50,422 nt of DNA from an uncultured Gammaproteobacteria bacterium (GTDB taxonomy: Bacteria > Patescibacteriota > Microgenomatia > Levybacterales > JACOYD01). This document shows positions 20,704 to 50,422 of the stretch, one piece after another. Location: positions 1 through 50,422 of the forward strand of contig CAYUJR010000005.1 in assembly GCA_964445095.1 (NCBI GenBank), read 5' to 3'. How positions within the stretch are numbered: position 1 is the first letter of the stretch; each line of letters begins with the position of its first letter. Both the position numbers and the translations under genes were made by a program. The notes beneath the pieces are model-generated. The model made no database searches. It saw only the letters and a program-made list of their open reading frames with translations, and was not told the origin of the DNA.

Positions 20704-21468
20704 ATGGGTTATTTTTTATACCTTGCCTTCATCTTTATTACGGGTATTGTTTTTGGTAGTTTTTTGAATGTTCTCATCTATCGCCTACCGCATAATCTTC
20801 CCCTGACCGGACGCTCTTTTTGTCCAAAATGTAAAAAAAAGATTTCTTGGCAGGACAATATTCCCCTACTCTCCTTTGTTTTACTGGGAGGCAAATGTCG
20901 CAGTTGCCGCTCCCCCATCAGTTGGCAATACCCGCTGGTTGAGTTAGCAACAGGGGTCTTATTTGTCTTAACAGTTATTTTTCTTGCAAAAGACAATCTA
21001 TCATCTATAATTTATCATCTATCAATTCTAAGTGTCCTTATTGTTGTTTTTTTTACCGACCTTAAATATGGCATTATTCCTGATAAAATTACCTATCCGG
21101 CAATTATTATCTCTTTAATATACATAATACTTAATACTCAATACTTAATACTCAATACTTCTTTATCAGCTCTCGGCGCCGCTGTTTTTTTAGCTTTTCT
21201 CCATCTTATTACCCGTGGTCGGGGCATGGGCTTAGGAGACGTCAAACTAGCCTTTTTAATGGGCTTGTTGCTGGGTTTCCCCAAGATTATTGTTGCCTTT
21301 TACCTGGCTTTCTTGACAGGAGCGGCAGTTTCACTCATACTAGTTTTAATAGGCAAAAAAAAGTTTGGACAAACCATTCCCTTTGGCCCGTTTTTAGTTG
21401 CGGGAACCTTAATAGCCATGTTTTTAGGAGAATTAATTATAAAACAATTTAACAATTTAACAATTTAA
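20704..21468 (+). CDS. pilD: Prepilin peptidase
   Basis: Motifs GSFLNVLIYRLP, CPKC...CRSC, GMGLGDVKL and IPFGPFL. Confidence 0.93.
   Translation: MGYFLYLAFIFITGIVFGSFLNVLIYRLPHNLPLTGRSFCPKCKKKISWQDNIPLLSFVLLGGKCRSCRSPISWQYPLVELATGVLFVLTVIFLAKDNLSSIIYHLSILSVLIVVFFTDLKYGIIPDKITYPAIIISLIYIILNTQYLILNTSLSALGAAVFLAFLHLITRGRGMGLGDVKLAFLMGLLLGFPKIIVAFYLAFLTGAAVSLILVLIGKKKFGQTIPFGPFLVAGTLIAMFLGELIIKQFNNLTI
20997..21160. repeat. Two heptamer arrays in pilD (20997-21024 and 21121-21160)
   Basis: tctatca tctataa tttatca tctatca; and tacataa tacttaa tactcaa tacttaa tactcaa tactt. Confidence 0.8.
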
Positions 21469-27000: not shown

Positions 27001-27651
27001 AGTTTTTTTACTTCTCCAAGATGTAATTTCTTTATGATTGCCGGAAATTAAAATTTTAGGAACACGCCATCCCTCGTAAGTATTTGGCCGGGTATATTGG
27101 GGATGTTCGATGCTAGTTGAGAAGTGAGAAAAAGATTCATAGAGTGTTGCCTCCGGTTTAGTTAATACTCCGGAGATAAGCCTGCTGACTGTATCGACTA
27201 CGACCATAGCCGGAATTTCTCCTCCGGTTAGTACGTAATTGCCAATAGATAGCGTTTCATCTACTAAATGTTCTTTTACTCTTTCGTCCACACCCTCGTA
27301 GTGCCCAGCAATAAGAATCAAGTGATCAAGTTTTGATAATTCTCCTGCCCTATCCTGTGTAAATGTTTTTCCTCGCGGGTCTGTAAGAATTATTTGCTCT
27401 CGACATTTGACATTTGACATTTGACATTTGACATTTGTGATTGCTTTATCAATCACATCTACCCTCAATACCATTCCCACTCCCCCACCATACGGTCGGT
27501 CATCTACGATTTTGTGTCTGCCAATGCCAAAATCACGAATGTTTACTAAATCTATTTTGATCAGTTTTTTTTGCTGGGCTCTCTTAATAATTGAGTAACT
27601 AAAAGGCCCCTGAAACATTTCAGGGAAGAGGGTAAGAATTGTAATTTTCAT
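26977..27651 (-). CDS. trmD: tRNA (guanine37-N1)-methyltransferase
   Basis: Motifs TLFPEMF, VDDRPYGGG, GHYEGVDER and SIGNYVLTGGE. Confidence 0.96.
   Translation of the reverse strand: MKITILTLFPEMFQGPFSYSIIKRAQQKKLIKIDLVNIRDFGIGRHKIVDDRPYGGGVGMVLRVDVIDKAITNVKCQMSNVKCREQIILTDPRGKTFTQDRAGELSKLDHLILIAGHYEGVDERVKEHLVDETLSIGNYVLTGGEIPAMVVVDTVSRLISGVLTKPEATLYESFSHFSTSIEHPQYTRPNTYEGWRVPKILISGNHKEITSWRSKKTLVKRVSS
27402..27436. repeat. Perfect heptamer array (GACATTT) x5 in trmD
   Basis: Encodes NVKCQMSNVKC. Confidence 0.9.
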
Positions 27652-29344: not shown

Positions 29345-31372
29345 TTAATCTGGTGCGACTTGTTGTATTGTATAGCTTTTTAGCTTTTCTTTCAATAGGG
29401 GGAAGGTATCAAGCTGCGGTAATATTTTTTCTGCCTCAACTCTCGCTTTTTTAATTAAGTTAGCGTCATTAAAAGTAGCAACTTTTAGAGTAGGAAGACC
29501 GTGTTGCATAGTTCCATAAATTTCCCCCGGACCGCGCAACTTCAGATCGAGTTCTGCCAGTTGAGCGCCGATATGTAAAACCTCTAGCGCCTTAAGACGT
29601 TTAAGAATAGTTTTTTCTTTGGATTCTGTAAATAGTAGGCAATATGATTGCTTGTCGCTTCTGCCTACTCTGCCCCGTAATTGATGAAGCTGTGCTAATC
29701 CAAATCGTTCAGCGGCCTCGATAATAATTATAGCGGCATTGGGAATATCTATGCCTACTTCAACGACCGGAGTAGCCACCAGTATATCAATAGTCCCATT
29801 CCTAAAGTTATTGATAGCCGACTCTTTTTCTTGATGCTTTAACTTCCCGTGTAGCAACCCTAATTTAAAATCGGTGAAAACTTCTTTTTTTAATCTGTCA
29901 AATTCTAATGTCGCTGCCTTGACGGACTTAAGACTTTCCGACTGTTCTATAAAGGGACAGATAATAAAAAGTTGCGTGTGGTGGATGCTAAGTTGTGAGC
30001 GAATCCAGTGGTAGGCCGCCTCTCTTTTCTGGGGAGAAACAAGCCAGGTTCTAATTTCTTTTCGTCCTTTAGGCATTTCGTCCAAAAATGACAGCTCTAG
30101 GTCTCCATACAGCGTTAAAGCTACAGTTCGGGGGATGGGCGTAGCGGTCATGGTCAGAAAATGGGGATTTCTGCCCTTTTTTCTGACCATCGCCCGTTGT
30201 TCTACTCCAAAACGCTGTTGCTCGTCAATTACCACCAGACGAATTTTATTAAAATCTAATTTTTTGAACAGCAAAGCATGAGTACCAACGAGAATTGAGA
30301 ATTGAGAATTGAGAATTGAGCTTTTTTTACTCCCTGTTATTAAGCTAACCTTAACTCCCAACGGTGTTAATAGTTTGGAAATAGTATTGTAATGTTGATT
30401 AGCGAGGATTTCTGTCGGAGCCATCAAAACTGATTGAAAGTTATTTAAATGCGATAGATACATGGCTATTGCCGCCACTACAGTTTTTCCACTACCTACG
30501 TCGCCTTCTAAAAGCCTGTTCATTGGACGAGTGCCAGCTAGATCAGCAAATATTTCTTTAACCGCTTTTTTTTGGGCAAAAGTGAGTTCAAAAGGTAGTT
30601 TTTGCCAGAAATCTTGAATTTGCTTACGGAATTTACTGATGATAAATGGATAACCGCTCGTGCTATTATTCCAGTCCGTTTTTCTTTTTAAAACAGCCAT
30701 TTGTAATAAAAAAAACTCATCAAATGCTAACCTTTGTTTTGCTAAATCAGCGCTTTTTTTATCTTTTGGAAAATGGATTTGTTCAATAGCTTCGATAAAT
30801 CCTATAAAACCTTCTCTTTTAATAATCGAATAAGGAATATACTCGAACAAATTACTTTTCTGTTCATGAAGTATCTGATAGATTTGACGACGTAACCATT
30901 TAGAAGAAATACCCCTGGTTTCTGGATAAATTGGCACTAATCGACCAGTATGGATACTCAGAGCGTCATTATTAACTATTTCGTACTCTGGTGATTCAAG
31001 AACCGGCTTTTTGGCAAATACTGAAATTTTTCCGGCAAGAGAAATCTTGTCTCCTGCTTGAATATTCTTAGCCAGAAAAGGTTGATTAAACCAAACGACA
31101 TCTATAGTGCCAGTGTCATCTTTTATTTTTGCTTTTTGAATAGTTTTAAATCTTCTTATGTAGCTATTTTTTATTTCAGCAACAAAACCTTGAATGGTGA
31201 CATTTTCCCCAGCCTGAACCTTATCAATTGGAGAAATGAGGGAAAAATCTTCATAGCGAAATGGTACATGATAGAGAAAATCTTGCGCGATGTATATTCC
31301 CAATTTTTTAAGTCGAGTAGCATATATTGGACCAATTTTGGGAAGCTGGTTAATTGGTGTTGACAAGTCCAT
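29345..31372 (-). CDS. recG: ATP-dependent DNA helicase RecG
   Basis: Motifs GDVGSGKT, DEQQRFG, TATPIPRT and QLRGRVGR. Confidence 0.96.
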   Translation of the reverse strand: MDLSTPINQLPKIGPIYATRLKKLGIYIAQDFLYHVPFRYEDFSLISPIDKVQAGENVTIQGFVAEIKNSYIRRFKTIQKAKIKDDTGTIDVVWFNQPFLAKNIQAGDKISLAGKISVFAKKPVLESPEYEIVNNDALSIHTGRLVPIYPETRGISSKWLRRQIYQILHEQKSNLFEYIPYSIIKREGFIGFIEAIEQIHFPKDKKSADLAKQRLAFDEFFLLQMAVLKRKTDWNNSTSGYPFIISKFRKQIQDFWQKLPFELTFAQKKAVKEIFADLAGTRPMNRLLEGDVGSGKTVVAAIAMYLSHLNNFQSVLMAPTEILANQHYNTISKLLTPLGVKVSLITGSKKSSILNSQFSILVGTHALLFKKLDFNKIRLVVIDEQQRFGVEQRAMVRKKGRNPHFLTMTATPIPRTVALTLYGDLELSFLDEMPKGRKEIRTWLVSPQKREAAYHWIRSQLSIHHTQLFIICPFIEQSESLKSVKAATLEFDRLKKEVFTDFKLGLLHGKLKHQEKESAINNFRNGTIDILVATPVVEVGIDIPNAAIIIIEAAERFGLAQLHQLRGRVGRSDKQSYCLLFTESKEKTILKRLKALEVLHIGAQLAELDLKLRGPGEIYGTMQHGLPTLKVATFNDANLIKKARVEAEKILPQLDTFPLLKEKLKSYTIQQVAPD
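30290..30320. repeat. Heptamer array (GAGAATT) x4 in recG
   Basis: Encodes SILNSQFSIL. Confidence 0.85.
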
Positions 31373-37012: not shown

Positions 37013-38050
37013 TTAAAATTGCTCCAATATTCTTAAATCCGGATTGGTCAAAAGTCGCAGGTCATCCATTTGATAACGTAGGGTTACTAATCGGGAAAGA
37101 CCGATGGCAAAGGCGAATCCGTTGAATTCCTTTGGATTATAACCAACAGCTCGCAAGACATTAGGGTGAATCATGCCGGCCGGCATAATTTCACTCCAGC
37201 CGCTTTTTTTACAAAACGAACATCCCTTTCCATGACAAACAGTGCATTCTATATATGTATCAACACCTGGTTCAACAAATGGAAAATTGGTGGTGGCGAA
37301 CTTAATTTTAATTTTTTCCCCCATTAATTTTTTTAGTACATAGGTAATAGTACCAAAAAGATCTGTTAATCGAACATTCTTGTCAACTAAAAATCCCTCC
37401 ACTTGCCAAAATTCAAAACCATGCGAAGCATCTACCTGTTCATAGCGAAAATTTTTCCCCGGTGCAATCACTCTAACCGGAGGTTTGGTTTTTTCCATCA
37501 CTCTACCTTGCATAGCCGATGTTTGGGTTCGCAAAACAATCTCTCCCGGAGTTACTTTTGTTCCGTGAGTATCTAAATACAGCGTCATTTGTGTATCACG
37601 CGAGGGATGATTCTTTAACATATTTAATACCTCAAAATTGTAGTGGTCAGTTTCAATCTCCGGACCATCGGCAGCTTGATATCCGAGTTGTCTAAACACA
37701 TCTACAACTTCATAAAGAACTTGGGTCATGGGGTGGAGGTGGCCGATTTTGGGCGGGATACCCGGAGCGGTAGTATCAATCTGTTGTTTGCGCGTTTTTG
37801 AGAATTGAGAGTTGAGAATTGAGAGTTGAGAATTGAGAGTTTCTTCGATGGTGTTTTTGATCTCATTTGCCAATCTGCCTATTTCCGGACGTTTTTCCTG
37901 AGGAAGCTTAGTAATCTCCTTTAGGGCTTTGGTCAATTTGCCGCTTTTTCCCAAAAATGACAGTTTTAAATATTCCAGCTCTTTCGCGTCTTTAGCATCA
38001 AGAATTAACGGGATAACTTCATTTTTAATTGATATTAATGTTTCTTCCAT
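37013..38050 (-). CDS. pheS: Phenylalanine--tRNA ligase alpha subunit
   Basis: Motifs GHLHP, LRTQTS, FPFVEPG and GFAFAIG. Confidence 0.95.
   Translation of the reverse strand: MEETLISIKNEVIPLILDAKDAKELEYLKLSFLGKSGKLTKALKEITKLPQEKRPEIGRLANEIKNTIEETLNSQLSILNSQFSKTRKQQIDTTAPGIPPKIGHLHPMTQVLYEVVDVFRQLGYQAADGPEIETDHYNFEVLNMLKNHPSRDTQMTLYLDTHGTKVTPGEIVLRTQTSAMQGRVMEKTKPPVRVIAPGKNFRYEQVDASHGFEFWQVEGFLVDKNVRLTDLFGTITYVLKKLMGEKIKIKFATTNFPFVEPGVDTYIECTVCHGKGCSFCKKSGWSEIMPAGMIHPNVLRAVGYNPKEFNGFAFAIGLSRLVTLRYQMDDLRLLTNPDLRILEQF
37798..37841. repeat. Heptamer array (TTGAGAR) x6 in pheS
   Basis: Alternating ttgagaa/ttgagag, encoding TLNSQLSILNSQFS. Confidence 0.9.
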
Positions 38051-44369: not shown

Positions 44370-44376
44370 AGGCAAT

Positions 44377-44426
44377 AAAAAACCTCCCCTTCTTGGGAGG
44401 TTAAGTATAGCAAGAGCTAACCTCCC
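44377..44426 (-). terminator. Attenuator (terminator plus antiterminator) of the aro operon
   Basis: GGGAGGTTAG ... TAACCTCCC-aagaag-GGGAGG-TTTTTT. Confidence 0.85.
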
Positions 44427-44473
44427 TACGGCGTAAGGTAAAAGAAACCGAAGGTTTTGGTTAGTTTCTGCAT
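44426..44473 (-). CDS. Phe/Tyr-rich leader peptide MQKLTKTFGFFYLTP
   Basis: 15-codon ORF between promoter TTGACA(44513-44508)-17-TATATT(44490-44485) and the terminator preceding aroE. Confidence 0.85.
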   Translation of the reverse strand: MQKLTKTFGFFYLTP

Positions 44474-47307: not shown

Positions 47308-47313
47308 AAAAAT

Positions 47314-47370
47314 AAAAAAACCTCCCGCCTGGGAGGAGTTTTGCTATAACGGCGCAAACAACAACCTCCC
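47314..47370 (-). terminator. Attenuator (terminator plus antiterminator) of thrS
   Basis: GGGAGGTT ... AACTCCTCCC-aggc-GGGAGG-TTTTTTT. Confidence 0.85.
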
Positions 47371-47418
47371 TCAAGAGAGCTTGGTTGTCGTCGTAGAAGC
47401 TATAGCGCTTTGTTTCAT
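47371..47418 (-). CDS. Thr-rich leader peptide MKQSAIASTTTTKLS
   Basis: ACG ACG ACA ACC run; promoter TTGACA(47459-47454)-17-TATAGT(47436-47431). Confidence 0.88.
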   Translation of the reverse strand: MKQSAIASTTTTKLS

Positions 47419-47447: not shown

Positions 47448-48749
47448 TCAAGTTGTCAATAGATAATTTTTGAAGTCGGAATATAGATTAGATAACGCGA
47501 TTGTTTTTTTCTTTTTTTGTATAATCTCTTTGAGATTTTTGGGCAGAGCCACTTTTTGTTTTAGGGCTCTTTCTATTGTTTCCGGGAATTTGGCCGGATG
47601 GGCTGTGGCCAAAAAAATATTACTTGATGGTTCTTGGTTTTGCTGAATATACGCTTTGAGTCCCAAGTAAGCTACGGCACTATGCGGATCGAGAATATAA
47701 TGGTACCTTTTGTCAACTTCCCTAATGGCTTGAACAGTTTCTTCGTCGGTAAAACTTTTACTAAAAATATCTTTTTGCATTAATTTAAGATTATTTTGAT
47801 AAAGCTCGCGGATTCTGGCTAAATTATTGGGATTACCTACATCCATGGCATTAGAAAGAGTTTGTTTGGCAGGTTTCGGTTTAAAAGCTCCGGTTTGAAC
47901 AAAATGGGTAAAAACGTCATTAATATTGGTGGCAGCTACCAGTCGAGCCTTAGGTAGACCCATTTTTTTAGCAAGAACCCCGGCTGTAAAATTGCCCAGA
48001 TTACCGCAGGGAATAGAAAAAACCACCGGCCTTGCTTTGTTTGGCAGTTGAGCCCAGGCGTAAAAATAATAAAAAACTTGCGGCAGGAGACGAGCAATGT
48101 TAATAGAATTAGCAGAAGTCAGGGTTAATCTTCTTTTTAATGTTTTATCTAAAAATGCTTCTTTGATCAGTTTTTGACAGTCATCAAATGTTCCTTCTAT
48201 CTCGAGAGTAATAATATTCCCTCCCATGGTAGTAAGTTGAAGTTCCTGCGTTGGACTAACCTTTCCCTTGGGATAAAGTATAATCACTTTAACTTGGGGA
48301 ACATTATAAAATCCCGCTGCCACCGCGCTGCCGGTGTCGCCCGAGGTAGCCACCATGACAGTGGTAGTTTTTTTATTGCTATTGGCTAAAGCGGAAGTGA
48401 GTCTGGCCATAAAACGGGCCCCAAAATCTTTAAACGACAGCGTGGGGCCATGAAAAAGTTCTAAAACCCAAAGGTTATTATCTAATTTTTTAAGATTGAC
48501 TGGGAAGTTCATGCTTTCATTGACAATTTGTCGTAAGTTTTTAGTTGCGATATCGCCTGCAAAAAGCATTTTTGCCAGCTCTAAGGCCACCTCGGTAAAA
48601 GAGAGAAAGCGAAATTTTTCTATCATTTTGGCTGAAAGACGGGGAATCACTCGTGGCAGATAAAGTCCTCCGTCCGGGGCCAGACCGGTAAGAGTAGCTT
48701 GAGCCAGAGAGGCAGATGGGCTTTCTCGGCCAGTACTGTAATAGTCCAT
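47448..48749 (-). CDS. thrC: Threonine synthase
   Basis: Motifs GLAPDGGLY, ELFHGPTLSFKD, ATSGDTG, NSINIAR and TAHPAKF. Confidence 0.95.
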   Translation of the reverse strand: MDYYSTGRESPSASLAQATLTGLAPDGGLYLPRVIPRLSAKMIEKFRFLSFTEVALELAKMLFAGDIATKNLRQIVNESMNFPVNLKKLDNNLWVLELFHGPTLSFKDFGARFMARLTSALANSNKKTTTVMVATSGDTGSAVAAGFYNVPQVKVIILYPKGKVSPTQELQLTTMGGNIITLEIEGTFDDCQKLIKEAFLDKTLKRRLTLTSANSINIARLLPQVFYYFYAWAQLPNKARPVVFSIPCGNLGNFTAGVLAKKMGLPKARLVAATNINDVFTHFVQTGAFKPKPAKQTLSNAMDVGNPNNLARIRELYQNNLKLMQKDIFSKSFTDEETVQAIREVDKRYHYILDPHSAVAYLGLKAYIQQNQEPSSNIFLATAHPAKFPETIERALKQKVALPKNLKEIIQKKKKTIALSNLYSDFKNYLLTT

Positions 48750-48813
48750 AATTAAATCTATAAATTTAGCCTCGATTATACCGAGAAATTATAGATAAAA
48801 ATATATAATAAAG

Positions 48814-48874
48814 TGACCGCTGGTGGACTTGAACCACCGACCTTCACAATGTCAATGTGACGCTCTAGCCAACT
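48814..48874 (-). pseudogene. tRNA-Val(GAC) 3' fragment lacking the first ~13 nt
   Basis: AGTTGGCTA GAGC G TCACA TT-GAC-AT TGTGA AGGTC GGTGG TTCAAGT CCACC AGCGGTC A. Confidence 0.75.
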
Positions 48875-48880
48875 CAGGCG

Positions 48881-49055
48881 TGGGCATTGTAGGATTTTGG
48901 ACCTACGGCCTGTCGCACCTGCCCGCCGCGGTGTGCGCCTGCATGGATTTGAACCATGGACCTCTTCGATGTCAACGAAGCGCTCTACCCCTGAGCTACA
49001 AGCGCATTTTGACAGGCGGGCATCAAGCGACTACTCTACCCTAAGCTAAGCGCCC
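48881..49055 (-). other. Split tRNA-like gene whose anticodon loop encloses the intact tRNA-Val
   Basis: 5' half GGGCGCT TA GCTT AGGGTA GAGT A GTCGC (49055-49027). 3' half GCGAC AGGCC GTAGG TCCAAAAT CCTAC AATGCCC A (48916-48881). Confidence 0.65.
48934..49005 (-). tRNA. tRNA-Val(GAC)
   Basis: Full cloverleaf GCGCTTG TA GCTC AGGGGTA GAGC G CTTCG TT-GAC-AT CGAAG AGGTC CATGG TTCAAAT CCATG CAGGCGC A; CCA not encoded. Confidence 0.93.
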
Positions 49056-49309
49056 AATAAAATTCTTTTGCTAACAACTATTCTATCAATTATGTCCCTT
49101 CTCTTTAACCTTTTTAGTTTATACTCAATACTTCTTGCTTTGCTCAAGCTTTCGTATCGCTGACTAAAAACAAGCTTGAAAGGTCTTGTTAATTGCGTAT
49201 ACTTTAATCTTCCAAAATTATGCTCAACTAATCTTCTTTCTAAATTATTAGTTGATCCGATGTAATACCGATCATTTACTAAAGATCTTAGAATATATAG
49301 TATTCCCAT
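49046..49309 (-). CDS. GIY-YIG nuclease family protein
   Basis: LYILRS...YYIGSTNNLERRLVEHN...RPFKLV...IEYKLKRLK. Confidence 0.88.
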   Translation of the reverse strand: MGILYILRSLVNDRYYIGSTNNLERRLVEHNFGRLKYTQLTRPFKLVFSQRYESLSKARSIEYKLKRLKRRDIIDRIVVSKRILLGA

Positions 49310-49367
49310 TGAACCTATGACCCGTCCGACGTCATGTCGGACTGCTCTACCACTAAACTAACCGTCC
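49308..49367 (-). pseudogene. tRNA-like 5' fragment that breaks off in the T-loop at the GIY-YIG start codon
   Basis: GGACGGT TA GTTT AGTGGTA GAGC A GTCCGAC ATGAC GTCGGAC GGGTC ATAGG TTCA|ATG. Confidence 0.65.
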
Positions 49368-49428
49368 AGACCTCGCCCATTTTACCAACTTTAGTTAATA
49401 AATGCTACTAGGGATTAGAAAGTTATGC

Positions 49429-49746
49429 TTATTTGTCCGTAGGTTCGACCTGTTCCCAGACGCCTCCTGCGCGTATTGTTAGGTCATTAAACCAATCACC
49501 AACCTCATTTAACAACATTGCATCTTGATGTGTAACAGTTGGCTTTTGTTCAGGATGGCCATTGTTGCCTTCAGACAAAAGGTGTCTTGCCAGCTCATGA
49601 GTACCACTGACGTGTGGTGGTAAATCTCTACCCAGCGCACGCATTGCCAACATAAGACAACTGACGCCAACGGCAAGATGATGACGTGCTTCCCTCAAAC
49701 CTTCCTGCTCTTCTCCATGATTATTTCCTCTAGCTTGTTCTACCAT
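49429..49746 (-). CDS. Hypothetical protein (105 aa)
   Basis: ORF with strong SD AAGGAGGTG; no recognised domain. Confidence 0.7.
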   Translation of the reverse strand: MVEQARGNNHGEEQEGLREARHHLAVGVSCLMLAMRALGRDLPPHVSGTHELARHLLSEGNNGHPEQKPTVTHQDAMLLNEVGDWFNDLTIRAGGVWEQVEPTDK

Positions 49747-49766
49747 ATTTACACCTCCTTTCCATT

Positions 49767-49835
49767 AAAAAACCTCCCGTTGGGGAGGTTTCATTTTGCG
49801 GAGCATTTTAAAAAACTACCGCAATAGACCTCCCC
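49767..49835 (-). terminator. Attenuator upstream of the 105-aa orphan
   Basis: GGGGGAGGT ... AAACCTCCCC-aac-GGGAGG-TTTTTT. Confidence 0.78.
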
Positions 49836-49884
49836 CTTGGAAGGCAATAATAATTCCAATAATTTGATTGCTTTGTAATGACAT
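49816..49884 (-). CDS. Ile-rich leader peptide MSLQSNQIIGIIIAFQGGGLLR
   Basis: Leaderless ORF 7 nt after TTGACA(49920-49915)-17-TATTAT(49897-49892); five ATT codons. Confidence 0.75.
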   Translation of the reverse strand: MSLQSNQIIGIIIAFQGGGLLR

Positions 49885-49933
49885 TATTTTGATAATAACA
49901 TACTGCTAAATATTTGTCAAAAACAAAACAATT

Positions 49934-50236
49934 TTAGGCATTCATAACACCCACTATACTATTACTAGGTTGAGCTTGAGGTCCAGTTTTTTCTGCTGGC
50001 TTAGACAAACTAGCATCAACCTGACTTGTTCCACTTTCTGGCCTAACAACTCTTTGCAGATCGTAGCTTGTTGCATCAAAGACGACTACACACATTCCTC
50101 TACCAGATATATCTCCATGATCCAATCCATTTACTTTCGTAACGTCTGCTTCTACTCGAACACTTGCGCCTCCGGCGGGAAATTCAGTTGTTCCTCCTGT
50201 TATTACGGGAACATTTGGATTTATTTCTACGCTCAT
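49934..50236 (-). CDS. Hypothetical protein (100 aa)
   Basis: SD AAAGGGGGTG precedes ATG 50236; no recognised domain. Confidence 0.65.
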   Translation of the reverse strand: MSVEINPNVPVITGGTTEFPAGGASVRVEADVTKVNGLDHGDISGRGMCVVVFDATSYDLQRVVRPESGTSQVDASLSKPAEKTGPQAQPSNSIVGVMNA

Positions 50237-50261
50237 TCTATTCACCCCCTTTCAAAGCATT

Positions 50262-50332
50262 AAAAAACCTCCCGTTGGGGAGGTCTTAAAAATTACTTTA
50301 TTTTAGATTTTAATTATCTAAAAAGACCTCCC
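50262..50332 (-). terminator. Attenuator upstream of the 100-aa orphan
   Basis: GGGAGGTCTT ... AAGACCTCCCC-aac-GGGAGG-TTTTTT. Confidence 0.78.
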
Positions 50333-50418
50333 GTAAAAGCTCCCAAAAGGAGAGCCAATAATAGAAGGCTAAGTAAAATTTCAACTTTCTTAAAATCTAA
50401 AACAATGCTTTTTGTCAT
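50314..50418 (-). CDS. Leu-rich leader peptide MTKSIVLDFKKVEILLSLLLLALLLGAFTGGLFR
   Basis: 34-codon ORF at the window edge, so the start and promoter cannot be verified; 9 Leu in 11 codons. Confidence 0.65.
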   Translation of the reverse strand: MTKSIVLDFKKVEILLSLLLLALLLGAFTGGLFR

Positions 50419-50422
50419 TATG

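Follow-up and report, generated by a model that had tools for sequence, protein, structure and literature searches.

A predicted isoleucine-responsive attenuator upstream of a near-orphan gene in a CPR-like genome

We describe a leader on the minus strand of a 50,422-nt stretch of DNA (the window) that carries the features of a classical attenuator, namely, a leader ORF with control codons, a 3:4 terminator followed by a U-tract, a mutually exclusive 2:3 antiterminator, and the stall geometry, as seen in the sequence and in folding models (Table 1). We consider it probable that this ribosome-coupled attenuator senses charged Ile-tRNA and, under isoleucine shortage, would induce a 105-aa gene that is real and evolves fast. 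Ile-sensing attenuation at this leader is, on sequence and modeling grounds, highly likely, and we have moderate confidence that the orphan gene is the selected target of the switch. The original prediction had proposed a protein of unknown function induced by Ile-tRNA shortage or by ribosome stalling, and this proposal is well supported by inference, drawing on the geometry of the leader, on Ile leaders of relatives that precede ilvA/Rid, citramalate synthase, aspartate kinase, and ileS genes, and on sibling attenuators that match their downstream genes. Its further suggestion, a starvation, dormancy, or host-sensing effector, is conjectural, as the searches gave neither a family nor a fold for the protein.

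In the proposed mechanism, a ribosome would start at or near the 5' end of the leader RNA. With plentiful Ile-tRNA, it would reach the stop codon and cover segment 2, the 3:4 terminator would form, and transcription would end near position 49767. With scarce Ile-tRNA, it would stall on Ile8 to Ile13, segment 2 would pair with segment 3, and RNA polymerase would enter the orphan gene. The orphan itself would be replaceable cargo within the conserved arrangement tig-DUF5660-(attenuator cassettes)-thrS.

Table 1. Features of the attenuator region and its siblings (window coordinates unless a contig is named)
Feature	Position	Strand	Basis or remark
Leu-rich leader (34 codons) and attenuator; promoter on overlapping contig C18	50259..50418	-	scan, fold
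100-aa orphan P0003 under the Leu leader; one 77% homolog, P0004	49934..50236	-	ORF call, protein search
sigma70-type promoter, TTGACA-17-TATTAT with extended -10 TG	49892..49920	-	11/12 matches
Leader ORF, 22 codons, predicted leaderless or near-leaderless	49816..49884	-	ATG at 49884, 7 nt past -10 box
Control codons Ile8 Ile9 Gly10 Ile11 Ile12 Ile13, every Ile ATT	49846..49863	-	ATT ATT GGA ATT ATT ATT
Segment 1, pairs with segment 2; 1:2 hairpin, -9.8 to -9.9 kcal/mol	49839..49845	-	folding
Segment 2, GGGAGGT box, 5' arm of the antiterminator	49828..49836	-	folding
Antiterminator inner helix, -10 kcal/mol	49794..49824	-	folding; as stable in 3/200 shuffles
Segments 3 and 4, intrinsic terminator hairpin and T6	49767..49791	-	hairpin 49791-49770, T6 49772-49767, -13.4 kcal/mol
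Strong SD of the orphan (GGAGG 49758-49754)	49752..49760	-	15 such sites genome-wide; anti-SD in 16S 3' end
105-aa near-orphan gene P0001, three predicted helices; one homolog, P0002	49429..49746	-	ORF call, protein search, models
Lone thrC ~1 kb downstream, same strand; possible read-through target	47448..48749	-	ORF call, profile
Thr leader attenuator before thrS, internal positive control	47310..47418	-	scan, profile search, fold
Phe/Tyr leader attenuator before aro genes, internal positive control	44372..44473	-	scan, profile search, fold
Arg-run leader before GNAT-like, ArgE-like, argS-like cluster	G000:C22:2954-6450	-	annotation by sequence reading

The leader and its alternative helices

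The consensus promoter, the ATT ATT GGA ATT ATT ATT run, the terminator, and the strong SD that had been called from the sequence are all present. The promoter boxes (TTGACA at 49920-49915 and, after a 17-nt spacer, TATTAT at 49897-49892) form the best of five promoter-like sites in 48500-50422, a number not above that in shuffled sequences (3.9 +/- 1.9). The upstream ORF is Ile rich, as claimed, while the leaderless start assigned to it is a prediction from its distance to the -10 box. This distance is 4 to 13 nt in 62/63 promoter-bearing leaders, and an SD-like word was seen in 3 of 69 leaders. At the genome Ile frequency of 8.2%, the chance of at least 5 Ile in 6 codons is ~3e-4 per 22-codon ORF. 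The GGGAGGT word (49834-49828) lies exactly 11 nt past the Ile run, as stated in the original prediction, and can now be assigned to segment 2, inside the leader ORF. The GGAGG of the orphan stands 7 nt before its ATG at 49746. We also observed an 11-codon mini-ORF (49765-49730, minus strand) that follows the T-tract directly and overlaps the SD and start of the orphan; it could take the 3' arm of the terminator as its SD, and the same junction text is found after the Leu leader of the related genome G336.

The Ile leader can form overlapping alternative helices 1:2, 2:3, and 3:4, with a z-score of -2.72 for the leader fold. When a ribosome with a footprint of 8 to 11 nt was modeled on the transcript before segment 4, the probability of the antiterminator was 1.0 with the A site at codons up to Ile13 and 0 from Phe15 on. 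The Leu, Thr, Phe/Tyr, and Arg leaders flipped within about two codons past their own last control codon in the same kind of model; for the Phe/Tyr leader, this held only while segment 4 was still absent from the transcript. All 14 Ile leaders aligned have their last Ile codon 9 to 12 nt before GGGAGG, and stalling at this codon gave an antiterminator probability of 1.0 in 14/14, compared to 0.0 in 14/14 with the ribosome at the stop codon. The 1:2 hairpin is the first to form in the nascent RNA (-9.9 kcal/mol). The antiterminator dominates the naked full-length leader at equilibrium (P 0.98), which leaves the 1:2 protector weak under this condition. The same fold without a ribosome was obtained for 11 of the 14 Ile leaders (P 0.92 or more), and termination without translation is therefore not predicted.

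A terminator scanner listed no sites for the region, while separate scans did find the terminator; the scanner presumably missed it because the stem was allowed to run into the T tract. Twenty-seven nucleotides of the terminator stretch are identical to a copy in the Leu leader, at 50258-50284. A T run follows segment 4 in 14/14 aligned leaders, of which the search itself required 3 to 4 T. No covariation emerged from pair counts on the terminator of the aligned leaders, and since the three boxes were search criteria, neither their conservation nor these pair counts carry a covariation signal.

Sibling and related leaders and the tig-thrS slot

The window is contig C5 of an 818-kb genome (G000; 40% GC, 95% complete) whose gene content is CPR-like. 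A genome-wide scan for a short ORF with a terminator and an antiterminator gave 24 rows, among them five loci of the same design, with Thr, Phe/Tyr, Arg, Ile, and Leu leaders. The first three precede matching genes, and the Ile and Leu leaders precede orphans; the first gene of the window's Ile attenuator is the 105-aa orphan and not an Ile-pathway gene.

The three-box pattern was found in 37 of 61 related genomes (reversed control, 0/61) and its Ile-run version in 12 of 401 genomes of the class (control, 0). Our set of Ile-run leaders comprises 17 loci chosen for holding the pattern, 14 from the collection and three added by hand (G044, G016, and G266); a further leader that had passed the Ile filter, in G004, was removed as Leu-type. 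Five of the 17 precede Ile-pathway enzymes, two precede an orphan and then ileS (G411, profile checked, and G192, by sequence reading), and 10, including that of the window, precede orphans only. The enzymes are Rid and IlvA in G403, citramalate synthase in G336 and G230, a citramalate-synthase-like protein in G266 (score 401.8 against a cutoff of 450), and aspartate kinase in G001. The operon is therefore cognate to Ile in 7/17, although these seven cases come from about three loci and are kin rather than independent. Pfam gave no family for any of the 10 Ile-cargo orphans scanned, and the Ile-cargo orphan of G028 is 74% identical to that of G044. The possibility that the orphans are CimA fragments found no support, as blastp gave no match at E 0.05 among the cargo set. 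In viral DNA, four stretches matched the Ile pattern, and none had the full attenuator layout on inspection.

Other leaders also match their genes: Ser leaders precede serA, Gln/Asn leaders gatC, Tyr/Phe leaders aroK or DAHP synthase, and a Met leader a gene with a SAM hydroxide adenosyltransferase domain. The last of these is a Met-rich leader in G242 (L060:6973-7746), suggesting that an attenuator controls the salvage of Met from SAM. Two tandem aromatic-rich attenuators were seen before a single 320-aa gene in G027 (L042; G027:C1 ~187750-187950), whose product is 49% identical to the cargo of G056. The Ile-attenuated cimA and ilvA genes (L058, L059, L063, and L065, in G403, G336, G230, and G266) are lone first-step enzymes, unable alone to complete Ile synthesis. 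IlvD and KARI had no match in G403, G336, G230, G266, and G192 (96 to 100% complete), and IlvD had none in five orphan-cargo genomes.

The original prediction had called for analysis of the orphan's neighborhood, and this analysis revealed the slot tig-DUF5660-(attenuator cassettes)-thrS, with cargo exchanged among relatives. In 9 of the 10 loci examined within the order, chosen for holding the pattern, tig and DUF5660 homologs lie upstream and thrS downstream; the tenth (G028) ends before thrS. The slot holds one to four cassettes. An Ile-run leader is present at 6 of the 10 loci, each time before a gene without a Pfam family or one 74% identical to such a gene. The cargo varies between genera yet is tied to the leader type among closer relatives: Leu leaders precede a 158-aa family, Phe leaders one of 87 aa, and Ile leaders one of ~120 aa. 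Three families of the order retain Ile leaders in the slot despite the exchange of cargo. A sensor that is retained while its cargo turns over argues against a simple decaying relic.

For the window's own genome, the first 55 nt of contig C18 (G000:C18:1-55) equal the window end (50368-50422), and this 55-nt word is unique to these two places. C18 contributes the promoter of the Leu leader, and tig, DUF5660, and ilvE lie immediately upstream of this leader in the same orientation. Joining C18 to the window by this overlap places the cassette between tig-DUF5660 and thrS.

The 105-aa protein and its genomic setting

As originally claimed, the 105-aa ORF carries no amino acid metabolism signature: there was no match in NCBIfam, PADLOC, or PHROGs, and the best Pfam hit, DUF6833, scored 17.1 bits against a cutoff of 26. 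The absence of a family also agrees with the description of the protein as an orphan, which has to be relaxed by one homolog. P0002, of 98 aa, is encoded on a 963-bp contig and was found among 1.84 billion representatives (42% identity by HMMER, 38% by BLAST; E 1.2e-6). A search of 5.8 billion proteins returned P0001 itself only and, with a profile, itself and P0002; these protein searches covered sequences of similar length. None of 60 relatives held a significant homolog (one fragment, E 0.09), the two-sequence profile found nothing in 150 genomes of the order, and no homolog was present in viral contigs. Two metagenome matches (L067 and L068) were rejected as they lie on the opposite strand of a long ORF that reads as dynein-like, and a 35-residue match in Prevotella (L069) was not counted as a homolog.

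Structure prediction, also suggested originally, gave three helices at low confidence (pLDDT 61 to 62) and generic helical matches only. Foldseek found nothing in the PDB at an E of 0.001 or less for the orphan models, VIA-align gave a best Z of 6.7 (rmsd 5.3, 95 aligned) with none at Z of 8 or more, and the ESM Atlas had no usable match for P0001 or P0002.

Near-identical DNA is present in groundwater sequencing runs from two studies, and no RNA run was among those found to contain it. The stretch from promoter to leader (49809-49945) is unchanged in one contig from each of four runs, and a second allele of the orphan differs at 33 positions in 347 nt with no gaps. Among the changes listed, 10 of 29 fall in third positions in the orphan, compared to 9 of 12 in a subset of the thrC changes (p 0.037, with the alleles unphased). 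Counted by hand, the listed orphan changes alter the residue in 14 codons, are silent in 7, and introduce no stop; 9 of the 14 residue changes lie in residues 73 to 92 and 2 in residues 1 to 54, the part that carries the best match to P0002. This pattern is compatible with a real gene that evolves fast under constraint on its first helix, and also with relaxed selection or a single recombined patch. The missing third-position bias fits drift as well as diversifying selection. Given the homolog, the frame-preserving divergent allele, the intact promoter, and the optimal SD, the ORF is probably real.

The genome appears incapable of Ile synthesis as judged by similarity searches: IlvD and LeuA/CimA-like proteins had no match in searches of G000, and IlvA and aspartate kinase had no tblastn match. 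The same-family genome G001 holds ilvD, rid, leu-like genes, and thrC, as well as an Ile leader before aspartate kinase. Of that ilvD/rid/leu-like/thrC set, G000 retains only thrC, which is 59% identical to its G001 counterpart but solitary, and one Rid gene; the rest of the G001 thr/ilv/leu cluster had no tblastn match. Because G000 appears unable to make isoleucine, a role for the orphan in coping with or relieving Ile shortage, such as acquisition from a host, is weakly suggested by analogy over a role in biosynthesis. A broader and rather doubtful extension would be that CPR bacteria, unable to make most amino acids, came to use attenuators as a battery of starvation sensors, each specific to an amino acid, for turning on functions aimed at the host, with the Ile slot holding a lone CimA/IlvA that bypasses host feedback or, as here, a fast-evolving small protein that pushes the host to release or make isoleucine. 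If this host-directed reading were true, a lone CimA or IlvA could feed precursor past the feedback control of the host.

Downstream of the orphan lie tRNA-Val and thrC, with no terminator seen between. The tRNA-Val(GAC) gene (48933-49005) is intact and is nested within 48813-49054 (minus strand), flanked on its 5' side by a tRNA-like piece (~49054-49043) and on its 3' side by a tRNA-Val(GAC)-like piece (48874-48813); complementary flanks around the tRNA pair in the fold. The arrangement resembles either a tRNA that is split or interrupted by an intron and encloses a second tRNA, or the scar of a duplication. A small GIY-YIG nuclease gene (87 aa, low GC; 49046-49384, minus strand) starts inside a degenerate tRNA-like stretch with a palindrome and is preceded by an extended -10-like site at 49384. 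Elsewhere in the window, arrays of 7-nt tandem repeats occur at 788-835, 21128-21172, 27409-27447, 30290-30328, and 37793-37845, some of them within genes.

Alternative explanations and known attenuators

The leader could also be a working attenuator kept from a lost ilv/cimA/thr operon, or one that serves thrC and tRNA-Val, with the orphan as a near-neutral insert in the first position. We regard this as unlikely, and several observations speak for it. At the ftsZ locus, an Ile leader precedes cimA-ileS in G230 and G266 versus orphan-ileS in G411 and G192; these orphans stand where other genomes have cimA, so passengers do occur and orphans can be interposed before a real target. The gene set of G001, with its Ile leader, is reduced to thrC and Rid in G000, ilvE lies directly upstream on C18, the thr leader of Escherichia coli senses both Thr and Ile, and the orphan allele lacks a third-position bias. 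The persistence of Ile leaders in the slot across three families, with cargo families tied to leader type, is nevertheless hard to reconcile with an unselected relic, and residues 1 to 54, with 2 of the 14 changes and the best match to P0002, do not look like those of a neutral insert. Extended -10-like sites at 49384 and 49085 could moreover drive the tRNA region separately.

It is quite improbable that the leader is a general sensor of translation stress with read-through as the default, or that the leader RNA or peptide is itself a trans-acting product, with Ile sensing secondary in both cases. The antiterminator fold of 11/14 ribosome-free Ile leaders agrees with such a default, and a trans role has been reported for the trp leader RNA and peptide of Sinorhizobium (10.1101/606483, available part). 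For the Streptomyces coelicolor ilvB leader, the available part of PMC1262725 reports that swapping the candidate control codons had no effect, so anatomy can mislead. The 1:2 hairpin, however, forms first in nascent RNA, and Thr, Phe/Tyr, Arg, Ser, Gln/Asn, Met, and Ile leaders carry codon runs whose amino acid corresponds to the pathway of the genes behind them. Control of translation, in which the 3:4 hairpin would hide a ribosome-binding site as in the leaderless poly-Cys leaders of mycobacteria (10.1101/834739, available part), we consider highly improbable. Segment 4 (GGGAGG) is itself an SD, and an ATG straight after the T-tract opens the cargo gene in G403, G242, and G230 and the mini-ORF in the window; the orphan's own SD, however, lies outside the hairpins, and the T run found after segment 4 in every aligned leader, in part through the search pattern, points to termination. 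Transcription attenuation that responds to Ile-tRNA remains our preferred reading.

According to the available part of PMC11665869, almost nothing is known of how Patescibacteria regulate their genes, and an inducible system for them has yet to be developed. Our search of the literature on CPR bacteria and attenuation, which covered few subscription journals, returned general precedents and no description of such CPR attenuators, and one CPR review contained no occurrence of "attenuat." What this locus adds is direct evidence from Ile-pathway homologs, a conserved slot with swapped cargo, and lone committed-step enzymes. The leaders would be compact, self-contained amino acid sensors that might serve as inducible tools for Patescibacteria, and they tag unannotatable orphans with the nutrient expected to induce them, offering a direct route to how epibionts obtain amino acids.

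In enterobacteria, the attenuators of ilvGMEDA (ilvL), thrL, leuL, and pheM/pheST combine a leader ORF with control codons, 1:2, 2:3, and 3:4 helices, and a U-tract terminator. The window's leader resembles the ilv, thr, leu, and phe leaders in its helices, its U-tract, and a stall just upstream of segment 2, and it has a weak resemblance to the Rfam family Phe_leader (RF01859; 23.6 bits for the Ile leader and 36.1 bits for the Leu sibling, against a gathering score of 55). In the Rfam scan of the window only tRNA passed, with no leader family and no T-box. Unlike the enterobacterial leaders, it starts 7 nt past the -10 box with no SD, its three boxes reuse a single SD-like/anti-SD-like word, and its first gene is an orphan in a genome without a detectable Ile pathway.

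Actinobacterial ilvB leaders and ileS T-boxes, which include short ORFs with Ile/Val/Leu runs beside a terminator, likewise place Ile genes and ileS under RNA-level control (PMC1262725, available part). According to the same excerpt, ileS is under T-boxes in actinobacteria, whereas relatives of the window's genome place ileS under a leader peptide and the leader described here has a full antiterminator. The poly-cysteine attenuators of mycobacteria form a "ribulon," in which a genome has several leaderless short ORFs and each of them controls the genes behind it (10.1101/834739, available part). The CPR-like genomes also hold several putative sensory ORFs, which are predicted to be leaderless. 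The ribulon, as presented there, frees a ribosome-binding site and concerns one amino acid and cysteine loci, whereas the system described here ends transcription at an intrinsic terminator as predicted, covers several amino acids, carries mostly orphan cargo, and leaves the SD of the orphan outside the hairpins. The mechanism is a textbook one, and what is unusual is the arrays of it on swappable orphan cargo in pathway-less genomes.
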